A stretch of DNA of 64,000 nucleotides from Methanobacteriota archaeon (GCA_004195615.1 PSPW01000001.1:765-64764), one strand, 5' to 3'. Positions 9,532 to 46,914 are shown, counted from the stretch's first letter. The notes: generated by a model not told the origin, from the sequence alone. Translations and numbers: made by a program.

Positions 9532-10230
9532 TCACTCCTCCTCCTTTTTTGCTGCCCTCGCTAGGGCTTCCTCTAGATCTAGGGGTACGAATCCAGGTGC
9601 CTCCACTAGTTCGGGTAGTCCGGACTCGCTTCTTTCCTGGATTGTTATCTCATGTGGGAGCTTGGATCCTGGCCTCATTATTCTCACAGTGCAGCCTACT
9701 GTCCCGAGCTTCTTCACGGCCGTTGAGAATCCGACATCCATCAACTGTAAAGCAGTCTCGCCGCAGTACTTGATATGCCCCTTCTGGAACTTCTCGACTC
9801 GGTGCCTAGCACCGGTAATCTTGCCACTGAGTGTGACGATGCAACCCCTGGCACCGGCATCCATTATGTTCTGCACGGTGCTGTGGCCGGCTCTTCGGAA
9901 GAACCATCCCCTCTCGAGAGAGCTTGCGAGTCTGCTGGCCATAACCTGGGCATTGATTCGGGATTCCCCGATCTCCTCCACTTCTAGCTGTGGGTTGGTG
10001 AGGTTGAAGTCTTCCTGTAGTCGGCGTTGAAGTTCGTGGATGACCTTGCCCCTTCTTCCTATGACTCGTCCTACTTGCTCAGCTATCAGGGTGACCTTTG
10101 TCCCCTCTGGAGTCCTAGTGAAGGTTAGCCCGCCGAAGCCTGCCCTCTCGGTCTCCTTGAGCAGGTACTCTCGGACGAGTTGCCTCTCGACATTGCGGTT
10201 AATCATCTTCTGAATTGTGTTCTCCTTCAT
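9532..10230 (-). CDS. rps3: 30S ribosomal protein uS3
   Basis: KH-domain motif VGRVIGRRGKVIHELQ, plus operon position. Confidence 0.95.
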   Translation of the reverse strand: MKENTIQKMINRNVERQLVREYLLKETERAGFGGLTFTRTPEGTKVTLIAEQVGRVIGRRGKVIHELQRRLQEDFNLTNPQLEVEEIGESRINAQVMASRLASSLERGWFFRRAGHSTVQNIMDAGARGCIVTLSGKITGARHRVEKFQKGHIKYCGETALQLMDVGFSTAVKKLGTVGCTVRIMRPGSKLPHEITIQERSESGLPELVEAPGFVPLDLEEALARAAKKEEE

Positions 10231-32787: not shown

Positions 32788-34356
32788 TTACTCGAGAGAG
32801 TTTACACCTCTGATTACTCCTCTTGCAACAAGTAGAACGGAACAAATCAGAAAGATTACCCATGAGAGCATAATCAATGTCGCTCCTCCTTCTCCCATCC
32901 CGAGCCACGTTGGGGCATAGAATGACAAGAATGAGCTGCCGTTCCAGAAAGAGTGCCCGACTATTGAGAGGGCGATTGCCGCGGGAATTCTCTTTGGAGT
33001 TTGAATTCCTCTCGGAGTTTGTGAAACCGGAATCCTTTCGTAAGTTAGGGAGAAGTCTTCTATTCCCAGTTTGAGTCCTGTTTCTGCCACCCCCGTATCA
33101 TTTCCAAGGATAATCCATGGATTGATTTCGTCCATTTCTTCGAGGGATGCTTTGCTGATTGCCTCTTCAAGGGTGGGGTGAAAACCGTCGAATCCCGAGA
33201 GATCTCCATCTCCGTCGGTATCTATCCCTATTCCCTCTGCCATGTCGATTGCGGAAATGGCCATTGATTTGGCCTTCCATGAGAGTTTTGCTTTGAGTTC
33301 CTTGTCAGTGGCCATCCAACCAATTGCGGTCCCCGAAATCGCAGTCCAAACCGCATGTCCGGGAATCGATCCGATGCCCCTGACCAAGATTGTGATCGAG
33401 ACCGAGAGTGCACCGTCAAGAAGTGAGATTCCGATGTATTGGAAGTTCTCAATCAATGCGAATCCCAGTCCTACTGTGAAACCAACTTGGAAGCCATGCT
33501 TGGGACCTGTGATATATGGGAGGAACAAGGCAACCGCCATTGCTTTGAAAATCTCCTCGCAGAAGGGTGCTCCGGCTGCAAGGAGCAAAAACTCGTATGC
33601 CCATTGATCCGGTTCGAAAGGAATAATCTCGGGGACGATTAGTGAATTGAAGATGGAGGCAGGGAAGGCAGAGGCCATTCCAGCCATCAGCCATGCCTCG
33701 GCATCCCTCCTCCTAGTTGGCAGGCCCAGTAACTTGTTCGAAGTCCCCCACCATGCCAGAACGGGAAGGGAAAACCCGACGAACCAGATTGGAACCGCAA
33801 GTAGTAGGAAAAGGATGACTCCTCCGACTTCAGAAACTGTCAGCATCAATATCGAGATGCTTATTCCAGCCGAAACAACGGCAGCGAATAACCCCCATAG
33901 TTGCCTATTGGGGGGGACATCCAGAATCGAGTCGTCTTTCACTAAGAATCGAGTTAGCTTTGTCTTCATCGGGGTTCTCAGAGATCCCCCTTCTGGAAGT
34001 GCGTGGGCTTCGGAACCAGATGCGTCTGAAACCGCAAGACGAACGTGGACAAGCCGTGGTTTGTGGAGACTCAAGATCAAGAAAACCAGAGGTGCACTGC
34101 AGATTCCAGAAACTAGCACCAAACCGGGTTCAAGGCTGATTGCTCCGATTACTAGGAAATGTAGCACATACATCAAGAAGAACGCAGGGATTACCGTCCC
34201 CAACATTCTGAGGTAAACTCCCCAAGGCTTGCTGGTTCTTGCAATCCTGAGATTGCTAGGCGGCTCACTTAGGGGTTCTGGATGCTTAATCCGATACATA
34301 CGACCCATTTGATCGATGAATACTCTCTCGTCTTGCATGCTCTCACCCGGTGCCAC
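32788..34356 (-). CDS. PrsW-like intramembrane metalloprotease with long N-terminal membrane extension
   Basis: FCEEIFKAMAV (EExxK), GFALIENFQY, GHAVWTAISG and HSFWNG. Confidence 0.7.
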   Translation of the reverse strand: MAPGESMQDERVFIDQMGRMYRIKHPEPLSEPPSNLRIARTSKPWGVYLRMLGTVIPAFFLMYVLHFLVIGAISLEPGLVLVSGICSAPLVFLILSLHKPRLVHVRLAVSDASGSEAHALPEGGSLRTPMKTKLTRFLVKDDSILDVPPNRQLWGLFAAVVSAGISISILMLTVSEVGGVILFLLLAVPIWFVGFSLPVLAWWGTSNKLLGLPTRRRDAEAWLMAGMASAFPASIFNSLIVPEIIPFEPDQWAYEFLLLAAGAPFCEEIFKAMAVALFLPYITGPKHGFQVGFTVGLGFALIENFQYIGISLLDGALSVSITILVRGIGSIPGHAVWTAISGTAIGWMATDKELKAKLSWKAKSMAISAIDMAEGIGIDTDGDGDLSGFDGFHPTLEEAISKASLEEMDEINPWIILGNDTGVAETGLKLGIEDFSLTYERIPVSQTPRGIQTPKRIPAAIALSIVGHSFWNGSSFLSFYAPTWLGMGEGGATLIMLSWVIFLICSVLLVARGVIRGVNSLE

Positions 34357-34454
34357 TCAGATCGCCCATCACTCGCGATGCCCGAAGCATCCGGTACGAT
34401 TCCTCATCACTGTGGCGTCCCGTGGAAGACGGGGGGTAATATTGGGGTTTGGCA

Positions 34455-34640
34455 TTAACCGATTACTCCGCACGAGATACAGAAAGTCTCGCTTCTGACT
34501 TCGTCCCTCTTCATGCTCCATTGACCGCAGGATGGACAGCGTGGGAGCCTCCTTTTTTTCGAGGCTGCGGATCGGATGGACTTTGGTTTCCGAGACTTTG
34601 GGACGGCCCACCCCTTCTTCGGGCGCCTGACCTTTGGCAT
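34455..34640 (-). CDS. 61-aa basic protein ending in a TFB/TFIIB-type zinc ribbon
   Basis: Internal ATG of track ORF 34455-34748. MPKVRRPKKGWAVPKSRKPKSIRSAASKKRRLPRCPSCGQWSMKRDEVRSETFCISCGVIG. Confidence 0.45.
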   Translation of the reverse strand: MPKVRRPKKGWAVPKSRKPKSIRSAASKKRRLPRCPSCGQWSMKRDEVRSETFCISCGVIG

Positions 34641-34735
34641 GCACATGGAAGGGAGGGGGAACTCAAGAAATTGACTGATGAATGGTGGCGTCTTTTTCTG
34701 GACGCTAATCATAAGCCAGACGTATATCCGATGGC

Positions 34736-35677
34736 ATGCACTGCACAATTGTCGGAGCAGGAGTATCTGGACTATCTTCCGGAATTAGACTCATAGAGAG
34801 TGGCCATGATGTTCAGATTGTATCGGACAAGTTCAGCCCCGAGACGGTGTCTGATGTTGCCGCCGCAATTTGGTATCCCTTTCTGGTGAAACCGGCAGAC
34901 AAAGCCGGCACTTGGGGAATTGTGACCTATGGCGTTCTCGAGGAGCTTTGTGAGGGAGCTCCAGAAGCAGGCGTGAAAATGAGGGATGGGCGAGAATACC
35001 TGAGAGAGGTTGTTGACCTGCCTCCATGGAAGGATGACATAGTCGCATTCAGAATCCTGGAAGAAGGGGAAATCCCCGAGGGGTATGTCTTCGGTTGGGA
35101 GTTCAGAGCACCGGTTATTGAGATGCCATTGTATATGCCATGGCTGAATGCTAGGTTCGAAGAGAAAGGGGGCACATTCAAGCAAGGATTTGTCAAAAAC
35201 CTACAAGATCTGGAGGGAGATATCGTTGTGAACTGTGTTGGACTGGGTGCAAGAGAGCTATGCGATGACATGGAAATCAAACCAGCAAGAGGTCAAATCA
35301 TTTTCATCGACCAGGACCCTGGGATAGGCCATTTTGATCAGCAACCAGAGACTCTGACATACACCATTCCCAGGAGTGACGTAACCGTCCTTGGAGGTAC
35401 TGCGCAAGTAGATGATTGGGATCTAGAAATTAGAGATGAGGAAAATGATTTGATCCTGAGCAAGGTAGAGGCGATTTGGCCTGAATTGGATAGGAGCAAG
35501 ATTATCGGAGGGGCAGTCGGCCTGAGACCTTCAAGAACTGAAGTTAGGTTGGAAGAAGAGAATATTGACGGTGTCCGAGTCATCCACAACTACGGCCACG
35601 GGGGTGCTGGAGTCACTTTGTCATGGGGATGCGCTGACGAGGTAGTTTCAATTGCTGAGAGCAGAAAGGAATCGTGA
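34736..35677 (+). CDS. D-amino-acid oxidase family FAD oxidoreductase
   Basis: N-terminal IVGAGVSGLSSG dinucleotide fold. VIHNYGHGGAGVTLSWGCA fits the DAAO signature as I remember it. Confidence 0.85.
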   Translation: MHCTIVGAGVSGLSSGIRLIESGHDVQIVSDKFSPETVSDVAAAIWYPFLVKPADKAGTWGIVTYGVLEELCEGAPEAGVKMRDGREYLREVVDLPPWKDDIVAFRILEEGEIPEGYVFGWEFRAPVIEMPLYMPWLNARFEEKGGTFKQGFVKNLQDLEGDIVVNCVGLGARELCDDMEIKPARGQIIFIDQDPGIGHFDQQPETLTYTIPRSDVTVLGGTAQVDDWDLEIRDEENDLILSKVEAIWPELDRSKIIGGAVGLRPSRTEVRLEEENIDGVRVIHNYGHGGAGVTLSWGCADEVVSIAESRKES

Positions 35678-35765
35678 TGGAGGCAATCTCGGAAGCTAGG
35701 CTATAGGTTGGGCTGGCCCTCAAGCAGACTGAGGACAACGTCATCCCTCATCTGCTCTCTAAAGA

Positions 35766-36908
35766 TCACTCGATCTCTAGGGTTGGGGGGGCTTCCTCCT
35801 GCTCCTCAGTTTGTGCTGTTTCAGACTCATCGATGTCCTCGGTGACTTCCTCAGTGCGTCCCCTGAGGCTCTGAAGACCCTCTCCCTCGGGCTCGAGAAT
35901 GTTGTAGGCGGCTTTGGTTGTGGATATCACTATGGCTCCGATCTTGTATGGATCTCCGTTCGAAGACGGCCTTCTGTCTTCCAGCCTTCCGCACCATCCA
36001 TCTTCGACTGTTCCGATTGGAATCCTAATCGAGGCACCTCTATCTGAAACACCATAGGAAAACTCGTGGATTGATTGCGTCTCATGCAGTCCGGTTAGCC
36101 TCTGTTCGTTATGGGCACCATAGACATCCATATGTTTCTTGATGTTCTTTCCGAATTCCTCGCAGACCTTGTTGAATATCGCCTCGTCGCCACAAGTCCT
36201 CAGAGTGGTGTCGGAGAAGTTGACGTGCATTCCAGAACCATTCCAGTCGGTTGCCCCGAGTGGCTTGGGGTGCAACTCTATCGTAAGTCCGTACTTCTCA
36301 GCGTTCCTCTCTGCTAGGTACCTGGCGACCCAAACCTCGTCTCCGGCATTCTTTGCTCCCTTGGCGAAGATCTGGAACTCCCATTGCCCAGGAGCCACTT
36401 CTGCATTAATCCCCTCGACATTGATTCCCGCCTCAAGGCACATGTCTAGGTGAGTCTCGATAACCTCTCTACCGTATGCGTTCTCTGCACCCACAGAGCA
36501 GTAGAACTGTCCTTGGCCTGTTGCATCATTGGGGAATCCCAGTGGGAGATTCGTCTCGGGGTCCCATAGGAAGTACTCCTGTTCGTAACCGAACCAGAAG
36601 TCAACGTCATCCTCCTCAATAGTGGCTCGACCGTTAGTGGGGTGCGGAGTGCCATCGGCACCGAACACCTCGCACATCACGAGAAATCCATTAATTCGAT
36701 CTGGGTCGGAATATATCGCTACTGGCTTCAGGAGGCAATCTGATGAGGCACCCTCAGCTTGTTTAGTGGAGCTGCCGTCGAATGACCACATCTTACAATC
36801 ATCCAGTTTCCCTGAGAAATCTGTCTCCACCATTGTCTTGCTCCTCAAGCTCTGCGTTGGTTCAAAACCATCCAGCCATATGTACTCTAATTTCGACTTA
36901 GTTGCCAT
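35766..36908 (-). CDS. glnII: Glutamine synthetase type II (eukaryote-like GSII) with acidic C-terminal tail
   Basis: LEYIWLDG..LRSKT, FDGSST, FGYEQEYFLW, EVAPGQWEFQI, HPKPLGATDWNGSGMHVNFS, NEQRLTGLHET, VSDRGASIRIP, LEDRRPSSNGDPY. Confidence 0.9.
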   Translation of the reverse strand: MATKSKLEYIWLDGFEPTQSLRSKTMVETDFSGKLDDCKMWSFDGSSTKQAEGASSDCLLKPVAIYSDPDRINGFLVMCEVFGADGTPHPTNGRATIEEDDVDFWFGYEQEYFLWDPETNLPLGFPNDATGQGQFYCSVGAENAYGREVIETHLDMCLEAGINVEGINAEVAPGQWEFQIFAKGAKNAGDEVWVARYLAERNAEKYGLTIELHPKPLGATDWNGSGMHVNFSDTTLRTCGDEAIFNKVCEEFGKNIKKHMDVYGAHNEQRLTGLHETQSIHEFSYGVSDRGASIRIPIGTVEDGWCGRLEDRRPSSNGDPYKIGAIVISTTKAAYNILEPEGEGLQSLRGRTEEVTEDIDESETAQTEEQEEAPPTLEIE

Positions 36909-36930
36909 ATCCCTTTGCCGGGTAAAGGTA

Positions 36931-37075
36931 GTTTATAGTCTGAACGTTTGAACATTAATATCTCAATATTCTGACTGATTTCATTATATTATTAATATTT
37001 ATTATACAATTGTTTTATTATTCTATAGATTAGTTGTCATTTGAGTAATAATTATTGTACTGAGTTGAAAAATCC
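36931..37075. promoter_or_regulatory. Extremely AT-rich divergent promoter region (glnII <-> MFS)
   Basis: Almost pure A/T for about 145 nt in an otherwise GC-balanced window. On the minus strand TATAAA lies about 27 nt upstream of the glnII ATG. TGAAC(G/A)TT occurs twice at 36941-36956, and TTGAACA recurs near 37080. Confidence 0.5.
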
Positions 37076-37159
37076 GCTCAATTGAACACTTGCGCAAGGG
37101 ACATTTTCCTCTAGGCCTAGGTATGTGACATTGAATAGGATGAGTCGCGAGGTGTTTCC

Positions 37160-38392
37160 ATGGGGATGTCGGATGCATGGGCGATCCCTGATTTCAGGAA
37201 ACTGGTCATCGGCAATGGCGTCAACCAGCTTGGAACCTCGATTTTCATTATTGGGATGGGTTGGACAGTGTCGCAAATCGGTGGGCCAAAGGCATACGGG
37301 ATGATATTCACTGCATATTTCCTCGGCCACCTCCCCCTGCTCCTATATGGTGGGATGGTAGTTGACCGGATGCCGAGAAGAACGGTGGCACTAGTAGCAG
37401 ATTTTGCCCAGGCTCTTATGGTCACCTTGGGAGTAATCGTCCTAGCAGTTGGATTTGGAGAAATCAAAACACTACTGGTTGTTGCTTTCTTCACCGGAGG
37501 TGCGGGGGCATTCTCGATTCCAGCGATAGGGGCACTGGTTCCAGACCTAGTTGAAGAGGAGTTACTGCCCCAAGCCAATGCCATCAGAGGAGTGGCTATG
37601 ACTGGAGCATGGATGCTCGGACCTCTGATTGGAGGTTTCTCAGTTGCATCCTGGGGGATCGAGGCATGTCTGATCCTAGATGTTTTGACTTTCGTGTTCA
37701 GCGGATTTCTCCTATTGACCATCCCAGAGATCTCGGTTGACAGGGAAGAGAGTGGTGATCTTCGAGAAGAGATCTCGGAGGCATGGGCCTTCGTGAAGAC
37801 CCAACCGTGGTTATTTGCCGGAATCGTGATGTTCATGATTTGGCACATTGGGGAATCTGCGATCGAGATTGGGATCCCATTCATCATCGAGAACAATGGG
37901 TTAGGTGCAAAGGAGTTCGGAATCTTCGGTGCGATTGGGGCTGGTGGGGCGATGATCGGCTCTGTCATTGGAGGCATTAGGCCAGTCTCGAAAGAAGTTC
38001 GAGGACTGGTATTCTATGTCTTCGTTGGAGGGATGGCCTGGTGCATGCTGATGTGGGCGATGCCCATTCCCTTCCTGCTGATTCTCGTTTTCGTATTCCT
38101 AGAGGGAGTTCTCGGTGGGACCTTGGGGGTGATTTGGCGAACCACGATGTCGGATAGCGTTGACCAGCACCTAAGGGGACGAGTGAACTCGCTGGATGCC
38201 ATAGGTTCATTGATCTTCATCCCCCTTTCTCCACTAATGGGCGGTTGGATGATCGAGGAGACCAATATCATAACCACATTTGCAATCGCAGTCTCGATCA
38301 TGCTCCTCACAACCATGGCTGGATTGGTCGTCCCCTCTTTCAGGAAATTCGAGAGGGTGGATTCAGAGCTATTCCCTATAGGGGTCGATTGA
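37160..38392 (+). CDS. MFS transporter
   Basis: 410 aa with about 12 hydrophobic helices. The N-terminus FRKLVIGNGVNQLGTSIFIIGMGW is typical of the MFS_3/EntS-like group. Confidence 0.8.
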   Translation: MGMSDAWAIPDFRKLVIGNGVNQLGTSIFIIGMGWTVSQIGGPKAYGMIFTAYFLGHLPLLLYGGMVVDRMPRRTVALVADFAQALMVTLGVIVLAVGFGEIKTLLVVAFFTGGAGAFSIPAIGALVPDLVEEELLPQANAIRGVAMTGAWMLGPLIGGFSVASWGIEACLILDVLTFVFSGFLLLTIPEISVDREESGDLREEISEAWAFVKTQPWLFAGIVMFMIWHIGESAIEIGIPFIIENNGLGAKEFGIFGAIGAGGAMIGSVIGGIRPVSKEVRGLVFYVFVGGMAWCMLMWAMPIPFLLILVFVFLEGVLGGTLGVIWRTTMSDSVDQHLRGRVNSLDAIGSLIFIPLSPLMGGWMIEETNIITTFAIAVSIMLLTTMAGLVVPSFRKFERVDSELFPIGVD

Positions 38393-38747
38393 AGTCAATC
38401 TGTCTGATGTCTACTACGAACCATCTGCTATACAGGCGACTCTGTAGGCTGAATGCTACTGCAAGAACGAAAAAGTAGAGGAACCACGAGAAGGTGGTCT
38501 TGCCCATTGAAACTGGTATTTCAGTCAGAATCACGCCATCAAAATATAGACAGGCGCAGATGTATGACACCCTTCCCAAGGTGGTCAACAGGCTCTCCTC
38601 CTCTTGTGCCATCACCCTCTTCAAGCGATTCTCCCGCCAACCGTCTGATGCCCTCTTTAGACGCCAGAATGATGTCTCAGCCTCCTTCTTCCTGTCGAAG
38701 AACGGTGGCTTCTCTCGGTCATCGGGGCTATCGATGTCCCTAGGCAT
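38376..38747 (-). CDS. Small 2-TM protein apparently co-transcribed after oppF
   Basis: The ATG lies 15 nt after the oppF stop, with GAGGGG upstream. The C-terminal half has two hydrophobic helices. Confidence 0.4.
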   Translation of the reverse strand: MPRDIDSPDDREKPPFFDRKKEAETSFWRLKRASDGWRENRLKRVMAQEEESLLTTLGRVSYICACLYFDGVILTEIPVSMGKTTFSWFLYFFVLAVAFSLQSRLYSRWFVVDIRQIDFNRPL

Positions 38748-38762
38748 TCATTCCCCTCTTGC

Positions 38763-39803
38763 TCATTCCGGAGTTTCCGAACTCCCCTTGGATTGAATTG
38801 GGTCTAGTTCCTCGATGACCTGATCGGAGAGATCTTTGGTGCAGCAGGGGCACGGTTGAACCCAGTGTCCTGGAGAAACCTCTCTGAGAGAGAGATCCAT
38901 GTCGACGCTCTTCTCCCATTCTGGATGCTGCAAGCGATGACCGAATGCACAACCCGGAGGTGGGTCGATAGGAGATGGCACGTCCCCCTCGACTAGGATG
39001 CTATCTCTCTTGGCAGACGGATCCGGCTTGGGGATGGCTGAGATTAGGACCTTGGTGTATGCATGCCTTGGGTTCCGATAAATCTCATCGGCATCGGCTA
39101 ACTCGACAATCTTTCCCAGGTACATGACTGCTACCCTGTCCGAGATATGGCGGACGACCGCTAGGTCATGGGAGATGAAAACAAAAGTAAGATTCATGCT
39201 CCTCTGTATACTCTGCAGCAGGTTCAGCACCTGGGCCTGTACGGAGACGTCCAATGCACTGGTTGGCTCATCGAGCAAGATGAATTCTGGATTCAAAGAA
39301 AGAGCCCTTGCGAGGGCTATTCTCTGCTTCTGTCCTCCTGAGAACTCGTGGGGAAATCTGGTCATGTGTTCTCTCTTCAAACCGACAGAGTCTAGGAGCT
39401 CTTCTACCTTATGAGTCAAATCGACACCATCGGAAATCCCATTCACCAGCAGGGGTTCGCCGACGATTGAGCGAACGGACATCCTGGGATTCATCGAACC
39501 ACCGGGGTCTTGGAATACTATCTGCATCTTTCGTCTGATCTCCTTGTTCGGGATCTTCCTGATGTCCTCTCCCGAATAACGAACGGAACCGCTTGTGATT
39601 GGGATCAGCCCCATTAGGACTCTTCCCAGGGTAGTCTTTCCGCATCCGGACTCGCCGACAATGCCGAGTGTCTCACCACGAGTGACATTCAGACTGACGC
39701 CGTCAACTGCCCTGACATATCTCCTAGTCTGCGACAGTAGCCCCTCCTTGATTGGGAACCATTTCTTCAGATTGGTTATCTCTAGAAGCAATTCATCTGA
39801 CAT
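38763..39803 (-). CDS. oppF: Peptide ABC transporter ATPase (OppF/DppF type)
   Basis: Start ATG 39803, 5 nt after the oppD stop. GESGCGKTT, FSGGQKQR, FILLDEPTSALD, FISHDL. Confidence 0.9.
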   Translation of the reverse strand: MSDELLLEITNLKKWFPIKEGLLSQTRRYVRAVDGVSLNVTRGETLGIVGESGCGKTTLGRVLMGLIPITSGSVRYSGEDIRKIPNKEIRRKMQIVFQDPGGSMNPRMSVRSIVGEPLLVNGISDGVDLTHKVEELLDSVGLKREHMTRFPHEFSGGQKQRIALARALSLNPEFILLDEPTSALDVSVQAQVLNLLQSIQRSMNLTFVFISHDLAVVRHISDRVAVMYLGKIVELADADEIYRNPRHAYTKVLISAIPKPDPSAKRDSILVEGDVPSPIDPPPGCAFGHRLQHPEWEKSVDMDLSLREVSPGHWVQPCPCCTKDLSDQVIEELDPIQSKGSSETPE

Positions 39804-39807
39804 TTTC

Positions 39808-41583
39808 TCACTCCCACTTATCCTCATCGGCATCCAAACAAATCGGGCATGCCTCGACCCAGTGTCCAGCACTATGCTCGATCATCTCTGGCCGGATTGT
39901 CACAGTCTCGCCCGTCCTCTCCATTCGCTGGCAGAAGCGGCAGCCATTGACGAAATCGGATGGGTTTGCAACCTGCCCGGGGATGGCCGGAAGAATTGAC
40001 TTCCGAGTGGATTCGATGTTCGGGGTGCATGCTATGAGCCCCCTTGTGTAGGCGTGTAACGGGTTTGCGAAGAGTTCGTCGACAGATGCCCTCTCAACCA
40101 CCCTTCCCGCGTACATCACCGTCACCTCATCGCACATCCCAGCTATCACCCCAAGATCATGGGTGATTAGGAGTATCGAGGTTTCCATCTCATCACGAAG
40201 GTCACGCATCAACTTGAGGATCTGCGCTTGGATTGTCACATCGAGTGCGGTAGTGGGCTCATCCGCAATCAGTAGCTTGGGTTCGCAGGACATCATCATC
40301 CCTATCATGACCCTCTGACGCATCCCTCCCGAGAGTTCGTGGGGGTACATCTTCACGACTTCCGCTGGATTGGGAATCCGGACGTCTTCGAGAATTTCAC
40401 TGACCTGTCGGGAATGTGCTGGATCCAGCCTTAGGAAGTCGAGATAAATTATCACTGGGAGTGCGAGGAGTGTGCAAACAACTGCCAACCCCATTAGCGA
40501 AGAGAATGGCATCCATAGCATCAGATAGACGACGAGAGAGACTGCACCCCCCACAAAGACTCCAGGCATGGAGTAAATCGTCCCTTTCCATAAGGAATTG
40601 ACAAAGATGCCAGGCATGCTCACGTACTCGGATTCCTTGGTGCCGGAAATCGGGTTGATTCGGTCCATGGTGACGCCGGCGCTCAATTCTCCCTCCATTG
40701 GGCCCAGCATTGCTTTTTCAGCCCCACCAATGTCCTCACCAGATGTCCCGAAAGTGATCAAGTAGTAAATGGGGAAAACCGCAATGAAGGCGAGCGAGAG
40801 GGGTTTCGCGGATTCGGCGAAACCAAGACGGTGCGCTGCGACGACGAATGCCAAGATTGAGATAATCAACGTCGTGGATTTCGGTTTAGCCTCGATTGTT
40901 CGGTAGAACAGAGTGAACGGACTGACGAGTGCCTGCCCTATACGGTTCATCATTGGCGTTTCTGGTTCCACGAGCCTGTTATGCTCACGCATCACCTCTG
41001 AGATCTGCTTTTCGACAGAGTAAAGGGGATTCAATGCAGTCATAGGCTCTTGGAAAATCATGCTTATCTCGTTCCCCCGGACCCAGCGCATGAACCTCTC
41101 ATGCTTGCGGGAGTCCGAGGAATAGTAGAAGCCCCCTCCCCATGCAGCAGCAGATACGAGCAATGAACCGAGAAACAGGTCCATACCATGGAGGGGATTG
41201 ATGAGGATCATCCAAAAGAACCCGAAAATGGACATCAGGACGGAGATGACGACGATTGAGCTGGAAATCCTCTTGATGCGCTTGGTAGATTCCGGTTCTT
41301 GGAAAACCAACTCTTCGCCCTCGTACTTGACGCTCCCCTCATCGACCTCGCAGGTGGCCAGTCCGATGGTGACAAGGGAGGTTACTGATTTACCACATCC
41401 AGACTCGCCGACTAGTCCCATGACTTGCTTCCTTTTCACATCCAAGTCTACTGAGTTTAGCGCCTCTACCGGGCCGTCAAGGGTGTCGAAGTGGACTTTG
41501 AGGCCCCTAATTTCTAGCAAGTTCTCCGACACACCTTCACCTCCTGTTCTTTGGATCAGCCACATCCCTAATGCCGTCGCCAA
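39808..41583 (-). CDS. oppD: Peptide ABC transporter ATPase (OppD/DppD type) carrying two hydrophobic insertions inside the NBD
   Basis: GESGCGKS, IFQEPMTALNP, LSGGMRQR, LLIADEPTTALD, ITHDLGV, NPLHAYTRGL. The likely true start is GTG 41532 (GGAGGTGA upstream, 5 nt after the oppC stop). Confidence 0.85.
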   Translation of the reverse strand: MATALGMWLIQRTGGEGVSENLLEIRGLKVHFDTLDGPVEALNSVDLDVKRKQVMGLVGESGCGKSVTSLVTIGLATCEVDEGSVKYEGEELVFQEPESTKRIKRISSSIVVISVLMSIFGFFWMILINPLHGMDLFLGSLLVSAAAWGGGFYYSSDSRKHERFMRWVRGNEISMIFQEPMTALNPLYSVEKQISEVMREHNRLVEPETPMMNRIGQALVSPFTLFYRTIEAKPKSTTLIISILAFVVAAHRLGFAESAKPLSLAFIAVFPIYYLITFGTSGEDIGGAEKAMLGPMEGELSAGVTMDRINPISGTKESEYVSMPGIFVNSLWKGTIYSMPGVFVGGAVSLVVYLMLWMPFSSLMGLAVVCTLLALPVIIYLDFLRLDPAHSRQVSEILEDVRIPNPAEVVKMYPHELSGGMRQRVMIGMMMSCEPKLLIADEPTTALDVTIQAQILKLMRDLRDEMETSILLITHDLGVIAGMCDEVTVMYAGRVVERASVDELFANPLHAYTRGLIACTPNIESTRKSILPAIPGQVANPSDFVNGCRFCQRMERTGETVTIRPEMIEHSAGHWVEACPICLDADEDKWE

Positions 41584-43297
41584 GTAGATTGAATCCGAGG
41601 ACTGTTGCTGCTATCGCTAGTCCGGGGTATAGCATCAAGTGTGGGTGGTACAGGAAATCGTCACGGCTCTCGGAGACGAGGATTCCCCACTCCGCCGTAC
41701 CGGGGTTGGCTCCGAGTCCGATGAACGATAACCCGGATGCGGAAAGTATCGTCCCACCTATATCGAGAGTAAATGCAACAAGCAACGGGGCCCATGCGTT
41801 TGGCAGGATGTGCCTGAACATTATCCGTCCAGGAGGCGCCCCTACGCTTCTGGCGGCTTCGACGAAGTTCATCTCCTTCACGTAGAGCACTTGACCCCTG
41901 ATCAGCCTGGCGTATCCGGGCCATCCGGTGATAATCAGAGCAGCTTGGATCTTCCAAAGTCTATCGAAGTCCTTGATCAGGACGATTTCGTCTCCACTGC
42001 CATTGGAGAAGCGAAAAAGGACCACTATGGCTACGAAAATAGCCAGAGTCCTGATAGATAGATAACGCAAAGGGTTGGTCCAGTCAAACGAATCAGCGAG
42101 TCTCTCACTGGCTCCTTCGAAATCCCAGTTCTGGATGAACTTCCTATCTGCCAGTGTGATAGCCCCGATCACCACTATGATTCCAAGCGCGGCACCGAGC
42201 CTCCAACCGAGGCTCTCGGAAATCCCGAAGAACTCAGGCCAGGCTGGAGCGGGCAGTAAACCGACGAAGAAGAAGAAGCAGAGCAAGGAGAGAAGGGGGC
42301 CACGGTATTGCATGACGATATTCATCGTTCTATCGCTAATCCTATCGCCGTCCAGAACCGTAGACAGGAGGTAAGACTGCGTGACCGTGACCAGGAATAG
42401 TATTGGAACAAGGACTCCGAACCAGACTGGGATGGTTAGGCTCATGACAGAACCGAGAGCAGCTACAAAAGCCATGGCCAGAATTAATCCGGGGACGGCA
42501 AAGAAGATGTCGCAAAACCTCATTATAACCTCGTCCACCCTACCTCCATAGTATCCACTGATGCTACCTACAATAGTGCCAATGGTAACAGTAAGGGTGG
42601 CGACGGTAAAGCCAATCTTCAGAGACACCCTAGAGCCGTAAAGCACCTTGCTGAACAGGTCCTGTCCCGTGTCGGTCGTCCCGAAGATGCAAACATCATA
42701 GCCATCTGGGAGCCATGAGTGGTGCATTGCTTCGTTGTTGAATTCGTAAGTCACCCATACCCCTAGGTTCAGAGTTGAGTTGTTGTATAGCTCGGGAGTC
42801 AGTATCAGAATGGACGAGTTTGCCGGGTCGATGTAGAGCAACGATGAGTTCAGATCGTACCCCTTAGAGTCCTCAATCTTGATAATTCGGATGACTGAGA
42901 GGGTGTCTTTGTAGTATCTATTATCCTCTCCGACCTTGTTGTGCGACTCCGCTACGACCTCTTCCAAGAAAAACTTCGACCTGGTGTTAGTGATAATCTT
43001 CTGCTCGTGCCAATCGCACTCCTCGGAGCGGGGTTCCTTCATCCTCGGCTCCCAGTCAATGACCCACTCATCCTCGGTGTCCTGGAGGTTCCTGTATGGG
43101 TGCTCGACGGCTATTTCATCAGCGAATATTGAGATCGTTGTAACGAAAATGACCATTATTAGCCCGGCTACTGCCAAAAGAGATCGGCGATAGACCTTCC
43201 ATCCCCTCCACAAATCGCTCCTAGACTGGGAAAGTGCCTGCCTTAGCCTCCTGAGGCTCTCCTTGCGATCCCCTTTCCCATCGTCCCAACTCCTCAT
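41537..43297 (-). CDS. oppC: Peptide ABC transporter permease (OppC/DppC type), enlarged
   Basis: EAARSVGAPPGRIMFRHILPNAW, GWPGYARLIRG. A large exoloop follows TM1, and there is an extra block of about 165 aa with 4 TM-like segments. Confidence 0.85.
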   Translation of the reverse strand: MRSWDDGKGDRKESLRRLRQALSQSRSDLWRGWKVYRRSLLAVAGLIMVIFVTTISIFADEIAVEHPYRNLQDTEDEWVIDWEPRMKEPRSEECDWHEQKIITNTRSKFFLEEVVAESHNKVGEDNRYYKDTLSVIRIIKIEDSKGYDLNSSLLYIDPANSSILILTPELYNNSTLNLGVWVTYEFNNEAMHHSWLPDGYDVCIFGTTDTGQDLFSKVLYGSRVSLKIGFTVATLTVTIGTIVGSISGYYGGRVDEVIMRFCDIFFAVPGLILAMAFVAALGSVMSLTIPVWFGVLVPILFLVTVTQSYLLSTVLDGDRISDRTMNIVMQYRGPLLSLLCFFFFVGLLPAPAWPEFFGISESLGWRLGAALGIIVVIGAITLADRKFIQNWDFEGASERLADSFDWTNPLRYLSIRTLAIFVAIVVLFRFSNGSGDEIVLIKDFDRLWKIQAALIITGWPGYARLIRGQVLYVKEMNFVEAARSVGAPPGRIMFRHILPNAWAPLLVAFTLDIGGTILSASGLSFIGLGANPGTAEWGILVSESRDDFLYHPHLMLYPGLAIAATVLGFNLLGDGIRDVADPKNRR

Positions 43298-44448
43298 TCT
43301 AACCTCACCCTTGGATCAATTATGGCGTACGTGATGTCGACTATGAGGTTCGAAAGGAGGAAGATTATCGATGTAACGAGGGTCACGCCCATGATTACCG
43401 TGTAGTCGATGGAAGTGATCGACGTCACTGCGACCCTCCCCATCCCGTTGAAAGCGAAGATTGTCTCGGTCAGGACCGCCCCCCCGATGGCACCTCCGAT
43501 GGAGAATCCAAGGATAGTGACAATGGGGACCAATGCGTTCCTGCAAGCGTGAACCAGGATCACTCTGGATTCGGCTAGTCCCTTCGCGCGCGCAGTCCTG
43601 ACGTAGTCCTCGTGCAGAACCTCTAGCAGGCTGGCCCTCATGTACCTCAGGAGAGATCCAGCTGACGAGACGCCGAGTGCGATGCAAGGAAGGGCTAGAT
43701 GGAGCAAGGTGTCCTTGAAGAGTAGCCATCTAGTATTCCACTCGTCAGGTATGGTGGAAAGCTTCGCATCAGACACAAACCAGCTATCGACCAAGTGGAA
43801 CCCAGTGCCACCTTCAGGGAAGAACCACACGAATCCATCTTCGGGATACGTGAAGCCCGTATCGTGCCTGCCATAGACTGGAAAGCAACCGCCATCGGTG
43901 CCGAAGATCGGATCGCACACCCCGCCCATCGCGGAACCGGTTGCGAAGTATAGCTGAAGCATCATGGCGAACCAGAAGATGGGGAGGCTGACGAAGGCGA
44001 TTCCGAAGAATCTCATGACGTGGTCGAACATCTTATCCTGCCTCACTGCACTGAGGATACCCAGGGTGATGCCCACCGGGTAGGCTATCATCAGAGCGAA
44101 GAAGGACATCTCCAGGGTAATCGGGGCGGCATCCTTGACGACATCCAAGACTGGTCTGTTGTAAGTCTCAGACTCCCCCCAATCCCCTTCGAACAGCCGG
44201 GTTACGTATTTCTTGAACTGCACGTCTACACCTTCGTTCATCCCCAGCCTCTCCCTATTGGCCTGATATGCAGTGATAGGCTCGCCATCATCGGTGTAAT
44301 CGATGATGATGCCGCACTTGTCGCCGCATTGCGTTGCAGCAGGATCAGCGGGAATCAGATGAGCAACGGAGAATGTGAAAATTACCACTCCCACAATTAC
44401 TGGGATTAGCAGAAGCAAGCGTCGGACGACGAACTCGTGCAGCTTCAT
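43294..44448 (-). CDS. oppB: Peptide ABC transporter permease (OppB/DppB type)
   Basis: YVRTARAKGLAESRVILVHACRNALVPIVT. Confidence 0.9.
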   Translation of the reverse strand: MKLHEFVVRRLLLLIPVIVGVVIFTFSVAHLIPADPAATQCGDKCGIIIDYTDDGEPITAYQANRERLGMNEGVDVQFKKYVTRLFEGDWGESETYNRPVLDVVKDAAPITLEMSFFALMIAYPVGITLGILSAVRQDKMFDHVMRFFGIAFVSLPIFWFAMMLQLYFATGSAMGGVCDPIFGTDGGCFPVYGRHDTGFTYPEDGFVWFFPEGGTGFHLVDSWFVSDAKLSTIPDEWNTRWLLFKDTLLHLALPCIALGVSSAGSLLRYMRASLLEVLHEDYVRTARAKGLAESRVILVHACRNALVPIVTILGFSIGGAIGGAVLTETIFAFNGMGRVAVTSITSIDYTVIMGVTLVTSIIFLLSNLIVDITYAIIDPRVRLE

Positions 44449-44598
44449 GTTGACTCCCCGGCGCCGGTCCGGACACCGCCCTATGACAGTTGCCGCACAC
44501 CATGTTCAAAACAGGTTTGCGATGAATTTGATTCGGCTCGACGGCGGGCTCCCGTAGGAGCCCGCCGCCGGCCTTACGTTACTCTAAGCTAGGCTTTC

Positions 44599-46869
44599 CT
44601 AGCAGGAGCCGACTAGTGCGCCGTCGACCATTGGCAGCTTGTCGTAGTCGAACCAGTGGGCCGACCCGATAGCAGCGTATGGTGGGCTGCAGACATCGTC
44701 GTGCTTTACGCCGATTCCGTTGTACTGTCCGATGATGATCATGTTCGGATCATCGGTCCATGCTGCGAAGGCGTCGACGTACGCCTGCTCGCGCGTAGCG
44801 TCGTCCTGAGAGGTCCTGCCGATTACGAGGGCGGCGTTGACTGCCGAGTTCTCGTATCCGGTACCATAGGCGTCTCCGCCAATGGAGTCGCCGCCCGCGA
44901 ACGGTGACCAATAGTTGTCAGGGTCCAAGTAATCAGGTGCCCATCCGCTGAAGCGGATGTCCCAGGTCTTTGTGTAGTACATCGTCAGGTACTCGGCCCA
45001 TGGCTTTGCGTCACCCTCAGTGGCGACTCCGATGGTGCCCAGAGCCTCTGCGATCTGGCCTGCCATAGCAATTCGGTAGTCGTTCCCCTCATTGGCCATG
45101 ACACGTAGAACGTTCGGAAGGCGGCACTCGTTGCCTGTCCTGTCACCTACGGCGACCACATCGGGTGTGCCACTGACGGATAGCGAAGTGCAGTCGTACT
45201 GGCGGATGAATCCTGCAGCCTCCAGTATTGCCTCGGCGTTTGTCAGATCGTAGGTGAAGGTCTCGGTCTGAGTGTCAGCATACAGGAAACCGGTTGGAAT
45301 CGGTCCGTACTGTGGGGCCAACGAGTTGTCGTAGGTCTCCCTTCGGTGCGTCTCGTAGTCGAATGCGTACGAGATCGCCTCTCGCAGAGCAGCCGTCTCC
45401 ATGACGTTCATGTCCATGGTGCCATCTGCGTTCGAATCGTGGTTCAGCACGAGTGACGAGTTTGCGTCCGTGTTGGAGGTGTCCTCACCAGCGTCTAGAG
45501 CGTTCGGGTTTAGGTTGAAGGCTGCTAGGGTTGTTGTGAAGGTCTCCCTGTAGGAGCAGATGTACCCATCTTTGCTGGCTACGTTCGGCTTGTCGTCGAG
45601 TGCTGAATCCTCTCCGGAGTCTAGTGCCCCGTTGCTGTTCTCGTCGATGTAGCAGAAGTTGACCAGATCCTCGATGTTGATGCTGCCGAAGTCGACCTCG
45701 CCATCGGTGAAGGCCAGTAGCCTCGTCGATGCCTCAGTGACTATCGAGACAGTGTGGCGGTTGATGTTGTAGTCGCCGCTCTCCCAGTACATCCAGTTTG
45801 GTACGAGGACAAGTCTGTCCTCACGGACCCATGACTGCACCAGGTAAGCGTTGGTTCCAGCGCCGAATGGTGCCTCGTCCATCCAAGCATGGCAGTAGTC
45901 ATCGGAGGTGACGTTTCCGTCAGTATCCAACTCGATAACTCGGTTAGCCTCGCAAAGGTCAGCGTTAATCACTGCGCCCACAGTGTAGGCGATGGTAGAG
46001 ATGAACGCAGACGATGGTGCGAACAGGGTCACGGAGAAAGAGGTGGAGCTGATAGCCGTGAGGTTTAGTCCACCGTTGTCATCGTGGTTTCCATCTGCAT
46101 CGTTGCAGTCGAAGCTCTGCTCCAGAATCCATCCAACGTGGCTGTCAGGGGATCCGTATCCTAGAACACGGCACCATGAGTAGACGACGTCGGAGGCCTC
46201 CATCTTGTCACCGTTGCTGAAGTAAACATCGTCACGTAGAGTGAAGGTGTAGGTTAGGCTATCAGCACTGACAGTGAATCCTGTTGCGAGCCTTGGCTCG
46301 ATGATGGCGTTACCCGTGCCATCGCCAGCATACCTGTACAGAGTGTCGTAGACCTGTTCTATCACGTCACCAGAAGCTGAGTCGTAGGCGTCGTGAGGGT
46401 CGATTGTCGAGGCATCACCAATGGACATCTCAACAACCTCGCAGGGGTTGTTTGATCCCTGCTCACGACACTTTCTGGACTTCTCAAGCTCGTATGAGGC
46501 GTTACCGAAGTCCATGGTTCCTGCAGAATAGGCAGACATGATGGCTGCCTGTGTCATTCCGTATTCACAGGAGTTGTCGTTTTCCTCTGCAGCAGCATCG
46601 TAGTTGTTTGCTGCCATGTCGGTACATCCTGGAACCTTTACTACAGTCTCCGTTACGGTCTCCGTTACGGTCTCCGTTACGGTCTCAGTCACAGTTTCGG
46701 TTACAGTCAGGACACATGCGTTGTTGCCGCTGTCTAGCGTGTAACCGTCTCCGATTGCGTCGCAGTCAGCTTGTGTCAGCGTCCTTTCCACATCGTCCCC
46801 AGCGCATCCCGCTAGGGTCGATGCAATCATTAGTGTGCATAAAAGAAGAGCGTTTGCTTTAGCTTTCAT
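44599..46869 (-). CDS. oppA: Peptide-binding lipoprotein (ABC family-5 solute-binding protein)
   Basis: Start ATG 46869 (MKAKANALLLCTLMIASTLAGCAGDD, with lipobox LAGC). (TETV)n linker. VYDTLYRY and PDYLDPDNYW are family-5-like. It heads the opp operon. Confidence 0.8.
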   Translation of the reverse strand: MKAKANALLLCTLMIASTLAGCAGDDVERTLTQADCDAIGDGYTLDSGNNACVLTVTETVTETVTETVTETVTETVVKVPGCTDMAANNYDAAAEENDNSCEYGMTQAAIMSAYSAGTMDFGNASYELEKSRKCREQGSNNPCEVVEMSIGDASTIDPHDAYDSASGDVIEQVYDTLYRYAGDGTGNAIIEPRLATGFTVSADSLTYTFTLRDDVYFSNGDKMEASDVVYSWCRVLGYGSPDSHVGWILEQSFDCNDADGNHDDNGGLNLTAISSTSFSVTLFAPSSAFISTIAYTVGAVINADLCEANRVIELDTDGNVTSDDYCHAWMDEAPFGAGTNAYLVQSWVREDRLVLVPNWMYWESGDYNINRHTVSIVTEASTRLLAFTDGEVDFGSINIEDLVNFCYIDENSNGALDSGEDSALDDKPNVASKDGYICSYRETFTTTLAAFNLNPNALDAGEDTSNTDANSSLVLNHDSNADGTMDMNVMETAALREAISYAFDYETHRRETYDNSLAPQYGPIPTGFLYADTQTETFTYDLTNAEAILEAAGFIRQYDCTSLSVSGTPDVVAVGDRTGNECRLPNVLRVMANEGNDYRIAMAGQIAEALGTIGVATEGDAKPWAEYLTMYYTKTWDIRFSGWAPDYLDPDNYWSPFAGGDSIGGDAYGTGYENSAVNAALVIGRTSQDDATREQAYVDAFAAWTDDPNMIIIGQYNGIGVKHDDVCSPPYAAIGSAHWFDYDKLPMVDGALVGSC
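46646..46705. repeat. Tandem 12-nt repeat (gtctccgttacg x3 plus 2 degenerate units) inside oppA
   Basis: Read directly from the DNA. It encodes TVTETVTETVTETVTETVTETV immediately after the lipobox. Confidence 0.9.
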
Positions 46870-46904
46870 CGCTCTACTGAGACTAAGGTCTGTATTTAGT
46901 ATCA

Positions 46905-46914
46905 CCCTATAAAT
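46905..46914 (-). promoter_or_regulatory. Candidate TATA box (TTTATAGGG) of the opp operon
   Basis: Lies about 40 nt upstream of oppA ATG 46869 on the minus strand. Confidence 0.4.

Follow-up and report, generated by a model that had tools for sequence, protein, structure and literature searches.

This report concerns the OppD-type ATP-binding cassette (ABC) ATPase encoded by a peptide-importer operon in a 64,000-nucleotide stretch of DNA from a Methanobacteriota archaeon (GCA_004195615.1, PSPW01000001.1:765-64764), hereafter called the window. The nucleotide-binding domain (NBD) of this protein is interrupted twice, by about 70 and by 186 residues, and the two insertions contain two and four transmembrane (TM)-like helices, respectively. 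I consider it likely that two surface loops of OppD have been expanded into membrane-spanning hairpins that form an accessory anchor or belt beside the permease OppB. That the OppD helices are truly embedded in the membrane is predicted with good confidence, while any specific function is proposed with much less. ABC ATPases are soluble or peripheral subunits that touch the membrane domain through a short coupling helix only; the window OppD appears to be threaded six times through the membrane, entering at the two loops that flank the moving parts of the domain.

The operon (oppA, oppB, oppC, oppD, oppF and a 123-residue open reading frame (ORF); 38376-46905, minus strand; Table 1) combines an SBP_bac_5 substrate-binding protein, two BPD_transp_1 permeases with EAA coupling helices and two ATPases, as is characteristic of an Opp/Dpp type I importer. 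OppD is a member of this family by each sequence and fold criterion, except that the ATPase is non-contiguous and predicted to be non-soluble: the family criterion is a soluble contiguous domain of about 320-350 residues, and the window protein has three blocks and six TM-like segments. Peptide uptake is the putative function of the system, assigned through homology. An oligopeptide transporter is common to most Marine Group II (MGII) genomes (PMC6336850).

A nucleotide-binding domain in three pieces

When compared with Mycobacterium tuberculosis OppD and Escherichia coli DppD and OppD (phmmer, PDB chains), the window OppD aligned in three separate blocks, residues 22-93, 165-203 and 390-575 (residue numbers follow the 591-residue ORF), and the Pfam ABC_tran match is itself divided into two stretches (E = 1.9e-23). 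The NBD motifs (Walker A, Q178 of the Q-loop, signature, Walker B and H475) are invariant among 50 sequences. OppD is a complete ABC ATPase and, judging from these motifs, presumably an active one. The initial annotation had described a complete NBD interrupted twice by two and four TM-like helices, which the three-block alignment and the presence of all motifs bear out. Its ORF coordinates are correct, every hydrophobic peptide that it quoted is present, and the bounds that it gave for the insertions (95-165 and 205-395) lie close to those obtained by alignment (about 94-164 and 204-389). By contrast, the duplicated Q-loop motif that it had proposed (LVFQEP ... ILINPL) is not a feature of the family, whose consensus at that place is F-R-D-S/T and in which only F94, L127 and P130 are invariant.

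Insertion 1 is placed in the loop preceding the Q-loop strand and forms a helical hairpin (TM1, residues 108-128; TM2, 134-154). Insertion 2 is hosted by the loop between alpha2 and alpha3 in the helical subdomain (the 'structurally diverse region'), and its elements are, in order, an amphipathic helix (211-232), TM3 (236-256), TM4 (260-280), a variable loop (281-338), TM5 (339-358) and TM6 (362-383). The second ATPase of the operon, OppF, is free of insertions, its ABC_tran match running unbroken from residue 57 to residue 205.

An AlphaFold2 model of OppD was obtained with a mean predicted local distance difference test (pLDDT) value of 84.7 and a predicted template modelling score (pTM) of 0.72. 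This required a 50-sequence alignment: with 38 close homologues the pLDDT was 46.6, and it rose to 84.7 once one-hairpin forms and trimmed canonical OppD sequences had been added. The modelled helices of insertion 1 span residues 98-127 and 130-154 (pLDDT 94-97) and those of insertion 2 residues 211-232, 234-253, 256-279, 330-357 and 360-383; the inserted helices are 25-30 residues long, with pLDDT values of 84-97, and the loop 283-329 falls below 50 and is disordered. Foldseek aligned the model to E. coli OppD (8z21_C) with E = 2.7e-24 and a template modelling score (TM-score) of 0.89 when normalised to the target and 0.50 when normalised to the query. Since the match to 8z21_C reaches 0.89, the three NBD pieces rebuild the full OppD fold and the remainder of the protein is extra.

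Hydrophobicity, charge and selection in the insertions

Insertion energies were calculated on the Hessa biological hydrophobicity scale as sums over 19 residues. The values were -3.5 kcal/mol for TM1, +3.5 for TM2, +2.5 for TM3, +1.7 for TM4, +1.6 to +2.7 for TM5 and -1.3 for TM6, to be compared with -2.9 to +2.7 kcal/mol for the accepted helices of OppB and OppC. On the same scale, OppF and the NBD parts of OppD contain no 19-residue window below 4 kcal/mol. Likewise, no TM-like segment was found between Walker A and the signature motif in about 100 bacterial canonical or fused OppD-like proteins; the TM-like segments present elsewhere in this set belong to an N-terminal permease fusion (P0214) or lie after the signature in a fragment (P0253). 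A chance origin of the hydrophobic segments is excluded, because such segments are missing from OppF, from the NBD parts of OppD and from the NBDs of the roughly 100 bacterial relatives.

The distribution of charges was examined in 38 family sequences. TM1, TM2, TM5 and TM6 are charge-free in all of them, save for one Lys/Arg in TM5 of one sequence. The mean number of Lys and Arg residues is 0-0.4 in the hairpin turns and predicted outer loops and 3.3-5.7 in the flanks predicted to be cytoplasmic; for insertion 1, the flanks average 3.3 and 5.7 and the loop 0.4. The Lys/Arg distribution is a positive-inside pattern. Integral-membrane hairpins are expected to have hydrophobic segments some 20 residues long, even in number within each insertion, and a positive-inside bias, as is the case for OppD.

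These data bear on the alternative that the helices do not span the membrane but belong to a cytoplasmic or membrane-surface (monotopic) domain, for instance a dimerisation or regulatory module. I regard this as improbable. Four of the segments are virtually uncharged over at least 19 residues in the 38 sequences, TM1 and TM6 have clearly favourable energies (-3.5 and -1.3 kcal/mol), the arrangement of helix pairs with 3-7-residue charge-poor turns and Lys/Arg-rich flanks is the signature of inserted hairpins, and the insertions match no soluble-domain family in Pfam or NCBIfam. A non-spanning domain would nevertheless account for the marginal values of TM2, TM3 and TM5 (+2.5 to +3.5 kcal/mol), for the presence of about 0.8 Lys/Arg per sequence in TM3 and for the amphipathic character of the conserved helix 211-232, and regulatory domains are common on the ATPases of ABC importers (MalK, MetN).

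Pairwise ratios of nonsynonymous to synonymous substitution rates (dN/dS) between close genomes were lowest in the NBD core (0.01-0.04), higher in the inserted helices (0.14-0.32) and 0.19-0.72 for the middle, variable loop; taken per insertion, they were 0.12-0.38 for insertion 1 and 0.04-0.43 for the helical parts of insertion 2. The OppD insertions are translated and under purifying selection in frame. This selection, together with a GC content that is flat over the operon, oppD included (base composition scan), and the absence of repeats from oppD, makes it very hard to sustain that the insertions are an artefact or are missing from the mature protein, be it through misassembly, a frameshifted fusion, an intein or a mobile insertion. 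The same architecture moreover recurs in more than 120 clusters of independent assemblies and in 14 species-level genomes; the unusual length of OppD is the only anomaly that such an explanation could invoke.

Several specific origins were considered and rejected. An intein is at odds with the absence of any Hint match in Pfam and NCBIfam, with the all-helical prediction and with the junctions (...ELVF/QEP and ...DPAH/SRQ), and no transposase match was found in the same two databases that would indicate a mobile element. A fused transporter, in which a transmembrane domain (TMD) and an NBD share one chain, was discarded on the grounds that the helices occupy two separate sites inside the NBD, that OppB and OppC are separate proteins and that the inserted segments are not similar to either of them. 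As to an origin by duplication, the inserted helices showed no significant similarity to OppB, OppC, the small protein or one another. Loss of the insertions from orthologues, an intein or mobile signature, and segments failing to score as transmembrane had been named beforehand as the outcomes that would count against the initial annotation; what was found is that orthologues keep the insertions, that no intein or mobile signature is present and that the segments score as transmembrane.

Orthologues and known systems

A protein search with OppD returned more than 120 clusters of 541-594 residues (57-98% identity, 96-99% query coverage), all of which, where named, are assigned to Thalassarchaeaceae or Marine Group II euryarchaeota. 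A scan of 185,579 species-representative genomes identified the long-form OppD in 14 archaeal loci. OppC aligns end to end in every one of these, and the gene order oppA-B-C-D-F, followed by the small ORF, is kept in 13, L013 differing only in that it gave no small-ORF match. One of the loci (L007, PBOB01000032.1) is labelled as an Acidiferrobacteraceae bacterium, yet its MGII-type oppABCDF is complete and accompanied by the small ORF (56-80% identity); the contig is probably archaeal and was assigned to the wrong genome bin. Matches of about 2 kb in Verrucomicrobia, initially taken as long forms, proved to be canonical 360-residue OppD genes followed by OppF (66 loci). When a profile of the insertion region was run against 1.84 billion representatives, the insertions themselves were matched in about 20 clusters only; below about rank 20, the matches cover just the 40-residue Q-loop core and give no sign of the insertions.

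Divergent orthologous operons encode OppD proteins of 412, 429, 548 and 651 residues, and four types can be distinguished. In type A (411-429 residues), insertion 1 is absent and insertion 2 is reduced to one hairpin of about 85 residues. Both insertions are present in type B (535-560 residues), with a shorter insertion 2, in type C (570-594 residues), to which the window protein belongs, and in type D (651 residues), where insertion 2 is longest; types B to D differ by the length of insertion 2. In all types, insertion 2 has the amphipathic part at its N-terminal side and the junction LD-x-x-H at its C-terminal side. The small two-helix protein is present in every type A-D locus tabulated.

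The permeases vary as well. Type B-D loci have a four-helix OppC insertion between core helices TM3 and TM4 and no other extra segments were noted in them; this insertion is missing in two type-A loci, L081 and L087, which have instead four and about three extra hydrophobic segments, respectively, at the N-terminus of OppC, L087 having in addition two short ones in OppB. These helix counts per protein are crude and noisy, so that odd numbers reflect thresholds and not topology. The OppC insertion is thus found in all loci with both OppD insertions, and the insertions are conserved and co-occur in the 14 related loci. In L087 (3356-4774), OppB is 472 residues long and the two short hydrophobic segments lie in an insertion of about 63 residues, at a place where the window OppB has a hydrophilic loop.

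The closest known systems are the OppD/DppD proteins (TC 3.A.1.5; 8z21, 8z1v and the M. tuberculosis OppABCD complex 8j5q), with which the window OppD shares the NBD motifs, the four-cysteine oligo_HPY domain, the fold and a charged contact pair, E196 with OppB K289. It differs from them in that its NBD is split by about 70 and 186 residues, and the cysteine spacing, the OppC insertion and ectodomain and the sixth, small protein set the window system further apart. Large soluble insertions in an NBD are known: the coiled coils of Rad50 and SMC, the insertion domains of UvrA and the regulatory insertion of CFTR NBD1. These proteins resemble OppD in that large excursions between Walker A and the signature do not keep the NBD from folding into a single domain. 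Their insertions are, however, soluble (coiled coils, zinc modules, disordered loops), whereas those of OppD are hydrophobic hairpins predicted to cross the membrane. Fused TMD-NBD transporters (half-transporters, MacB, ABCG types) also have TM helices and an NBD on one polypeptide, but there the membrane part is one contiguous block, preceding or following the NBD, and makes up the transport path; in the window system, the helices are inside the NBD and the permeases are separate.

Accessory helices are known from permeases. MalF has 8 helices, accessory ones included, and the OppC of a Verrucomicrobial locus (L029) has extra N-terminal helices that, like the window OppC insertion, are peripheral to the type I core; in neither system are such helices in the ATPase. 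The NCBIfam models of Mollicutes OppD and OppF (NF043079, 561 positions; NF043078, 649 positions) are far longer than the canonical models. The window block from the signature to the C-terminus maps to positions 348-508 of NF043079 and 485-599 of NF043078, shifted by about 220 and 350 positions relative to canonical models, and this offset suggests that the Mycoplasma Opp ATPases may also have large NBD insertions ahead of the signature motif. Extra sequence of a transmembrane kind is not known to have been reported for Mollicutes OppD or OppF. In the literature, which was covered incompletely, no account was found of an ABC NBD containing TM helices or of such a feature in MGII; this is weak evidence of novelty.

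Probable docking, proposed role and the rest of the operon

The pairs in E. coli DppBCDF are DppB-DppD and DppC-DppF, and K243 of DppB, in the coupling-helix region, forms a salt bridge with E114 of DppD (PMC12136057). E196 of the window OppD aligns to DppD E114 and is invariant in the 50 sequences, while K289 of OppB, in the coupling helix RTARAKG, aligns to DppB K243 (8z1v_A). Since this contact pair is kept, OppD most likely docks beneath OppB, by analogy with the E. coli complex, and not with OppC, to which the initial annotation had pointed as the adjacent permease. Insertion 2 starts 8 residues after E196, so that its exit and entry adjoin the coupling-helix surface, and the chain re-enters the NBD 4-6 residues before the next canonical helix. 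In type I importers, the coupling helix lies at the membrane boundary. The MalK loop around K106, which is equivalent to the insertion 2 site, is reported to cross-link to the EAA loops of MalF/G. Since insertion 2 starts so near to E196, the helices probably rise into the membrane beside OppB. If OppD lies under OppB, its helices and the OppC insertion are on opposite halves of the complex and probably do not pack against each other. The stalks that connect insertion 1 to the NBD are helical and charged and measure about 10-16 residues, a length with which the bilayer can be reached.

An attractive hypothesis is that the hairpins insert co-translationally; since each insertion has an even number of helices and positively charged flanks, the three NBD pieces would then stay cytoplasmic. 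The six helices would cross the membrane, which would make OppD an integral membrane protein, and would stand beside OppB, with the four-helix insertion of OppC enlarging the other half. Were the small two-helix protein to add to this assembly, the canonical 12-helix core would grow to about 24 helices. Such an accessory membrane belt would hold the ATPase on the translocator at all times, and through it the mobile helical subdomain and the Q-loop region may be connected mechanically to the membrane domain at a second point, the coupling helix being the first.

The helices could have a more active part. One version, which I hold to be rather unlikely, is that they are a working piece of the transport machine, the ATP-driven rotation of the helical subdomain being passed to the membrane domain through covalently attached helices as well as through the coupling helix. 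That the six OppD helices, the four OppC helices and the two-helix protein constitute a second membrane module around the 12-helix core belongs to the same version and is equally doubtful. In another, the helices span the membrane but are mainly regulatory or sensory, signalling to the Q-loop and the helical subdomain what state the membrane, the small protein or the anchored OppA is in, and thereby gating ATP hydrolysis. Both insertions do flank the Q-loop and the helical subdomain, which are NBD elements that move on ATP binding, and a conserved small membrane protein is co-transcribed. E. coli DppBCDF is inactive without DppA (PMC12136057), so that gating is a property of the family. The number and placement of helices, however, vary freely (2 to 8 in OppD; N-terminal or internal in OppC) and the middle of insertion 2 is weakly constrained, so that a belt fits better than a precise sensor and the sensory role appears improbable. 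I therefore favour a structural role, as a permanent anchor and peripheral belt, because lineages and subunits differ in how many extra helices they have and where, and some stretches of insertion 2 evolve rapidly.

Some observations weigh against an anchor of membrane-spanning hairpins and are stated here together. The Hessa sums are approximate, and taken singly TM2 (+3.5 kcal/mol), TM3 (which contains H and R) and TM5 are marginal, so that their insertion would need partner helices. AlphaFold2 tends to give helices for many hydrophobic stretches whatever their environment. The nearness of the insertion 1 host loop to the membrane rests solely on linker lengths. Finally, common descent from one or two events, rather than a functional link, may be why the OppD and OppC insertions are found together.

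If OppD is indeed anchored in this way, an NBD fold can assemble from three pieces parted by membrane hairpins, and the protein is a natural test of what tethering the helical subdomain does to the ATP cycle. Coupling through covalently attached helices, if it occurs, would be a route not described for any ABC transporter. The annotation and modelling of a core peptide-uptake system would also change for the MGII archaea, which are abundant uncultured heterotrophs of the ocean. The graded orthologues, with one hairpin, three, and four or more, would be ready-made constructs for experiments.

Table 1. Coordinates of the opp operon features in the window (aa, amino acids; q, query residue)
Feature	Position	Strand	Basis
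oppA, substrate-binding protein, 768 aa	44599..46905	-	Pfam SBP_bac_5, E = 2.6e-54
oppB, permease, 384 aa, canonical helix set	43294..44448	-	Pfam BPD_transp_1
oppC, permease, 586 aa	41537..43297	-	Pfam BPD_transp_1 in two stretches, OppC_N
OppC extra extracellular domain, aa 74-193, between TM1 and TM2	42719..43078	-	DppC alignment gap q73 to q194
OppC insertion, aa 284-451 (about 168 aa), between core TM3 and TM4	41945..42448	-	DppC residues 159 to 166 = q283 to q452
oppD, OppD-type ABC ATPase, 591-aa ORF as listed	39808..41583	-	Pfam ABC_tran and oligo_HPY
OppD Walker A, GESGCGKS, aa 59-66	41386..41409	-	Motif reading, family alignment
OppD insertion 1, aa 94-164	41092..41304	-	PDB-alignment gap q93 to q165
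OppD Q-loop block, MIFQEP (Q178) to QISEVM	40990..41061	-	Alignment to 8z1v_C residues 83-120
OppD insertion 2, aa 204-389	40417..40974	-	PDB-alignment gap q203 to q390
OppD signature LSGGMRQR 417-424, Walker B LLIADEP 437-443, H-loop ITHDL 473-477 (H475)	40153..40335	-	Motif reading
OppD C-terminal oligo_HPY cysteines C548-x2-C551 ... C579-x2-C582	39838..39945	-	Pfam PF08352, E = 7.2e-13
oppF, canonical second ATPase, about 346 aa from ATG 39803	38763..39803	-	Pfam ABC_tran and oligo_HPY
Small membrane protein, 123 aa, after oppF	38376..38747	-	tblastn conservation; no Pfam or NCBIfam family

The start of OppD is probably GTG 41532, which has AGGAGGTGA upstream and agrees with the N-termini of homologues, or alternatively ATG 41565; TTG 41583, the first codon of the listed ORF, is an unlikely start. 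OppF probably starts at ATG 39803; its homologues in the 14 related loci align from about residue 24. The four cysteines of the C-terminal oligo_HPY domain of OppD are presumed to be a metal or Fe-S site. E. coli DppD binds a [4Fe-4S] cluster by C284, C290, C297 and C315 (PMC12136057), and the spacing differs between the two proteins, CxxC...(27)...CxxC in the window OppD versus Cx5Cx6Cx17C in DppD. The CxxC form also occurs in a Verrucomicrobial OppD (L029), and a sister group of long OppD proteins (P0120, P0126-P0128, P0295) retains a canonical-type GCRFHPRCPF..C....C.

OppC aligns to E. coli DppC in three blocks (residues 29-73, 194-283 and 452-584). Of the two intervening stretches, the first is a hydrophilic ectodomain of 120 residues without counterpart in DppC, on which the initial annotation is silent. 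The second agrees with the insertion of about 165 residues with four TM-like segments described previously, the segments being located at about 293-311, 335-353, 365-383 and 410-428 with Hessa sums of 1.4 to 2.7 kcal/mol. In L081 (975-3275), OppC reaches 766 residues and has, at the position of the ectodomain, a very acidic, Asp-rich ectodomain of about 380 residues.

The small protein has a charged N-terminal tail, two hydrophobic segments (residues 63-79 and 84-102) and the motif LFDG-ILTEI, and belongs to no Pfam or NCBIfam family. A tblastn search detected its ORF in 13 of 14 related genomes, with identities of 42-69%, and a Shine-Dalgarno-like GAGGGG lies about 7 nucleotides upstream of its ATG, in agreement with the two-TM ORF with its own ribosome-binding site that had been proposed. 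It is called as a gene after oppF in L081, L085 and L087, and in L086 (about 9700-10040) it is present yet uncalled in the gene annotation of the assembly. The small protein may be a sixth subunit.

OppA is 53-91% identical across 13 MGII loci. It has an N-terminal signal and a lipobox-like LAGC followed by a TVTE repeat linker; at residues 66-88 or so (46642-46708), right after LAGCAG, a 12-nucleotide tandem repeat encodes five to six copies of TVTE. This is the sole tandem repeat that the repeat scan found in the operon, and the stretch is probably a flexible tether of membrane-anchored OppA.

The C-terminal half of OppD is 50-67% (mostly 60-67%) identical to OppD of marine Verrucomicrobia (L015-L080, e.g. 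L029 5923-7005), and OppF is 51-60% identical to its counterpart there, in a bacterial gene order oppB-C-A-D-F. The likeness suggests inter-domain transfer, on a sample biased by the choice of loci through pattern matching.

Downstream of the operon (32788-38392) are an MFS_3 transporter, a glutamine synthetase (335-380 residues), a DAO-family oxidoreductase and a PrsW-like membrane protease, which are kept across MGII loci. Three orthologous loci with enough flanking DNA share the downstream glutamine synthetase and DAO genes, and most of these three also have the MFS transporter and a PrsW or Rce1-like protease.

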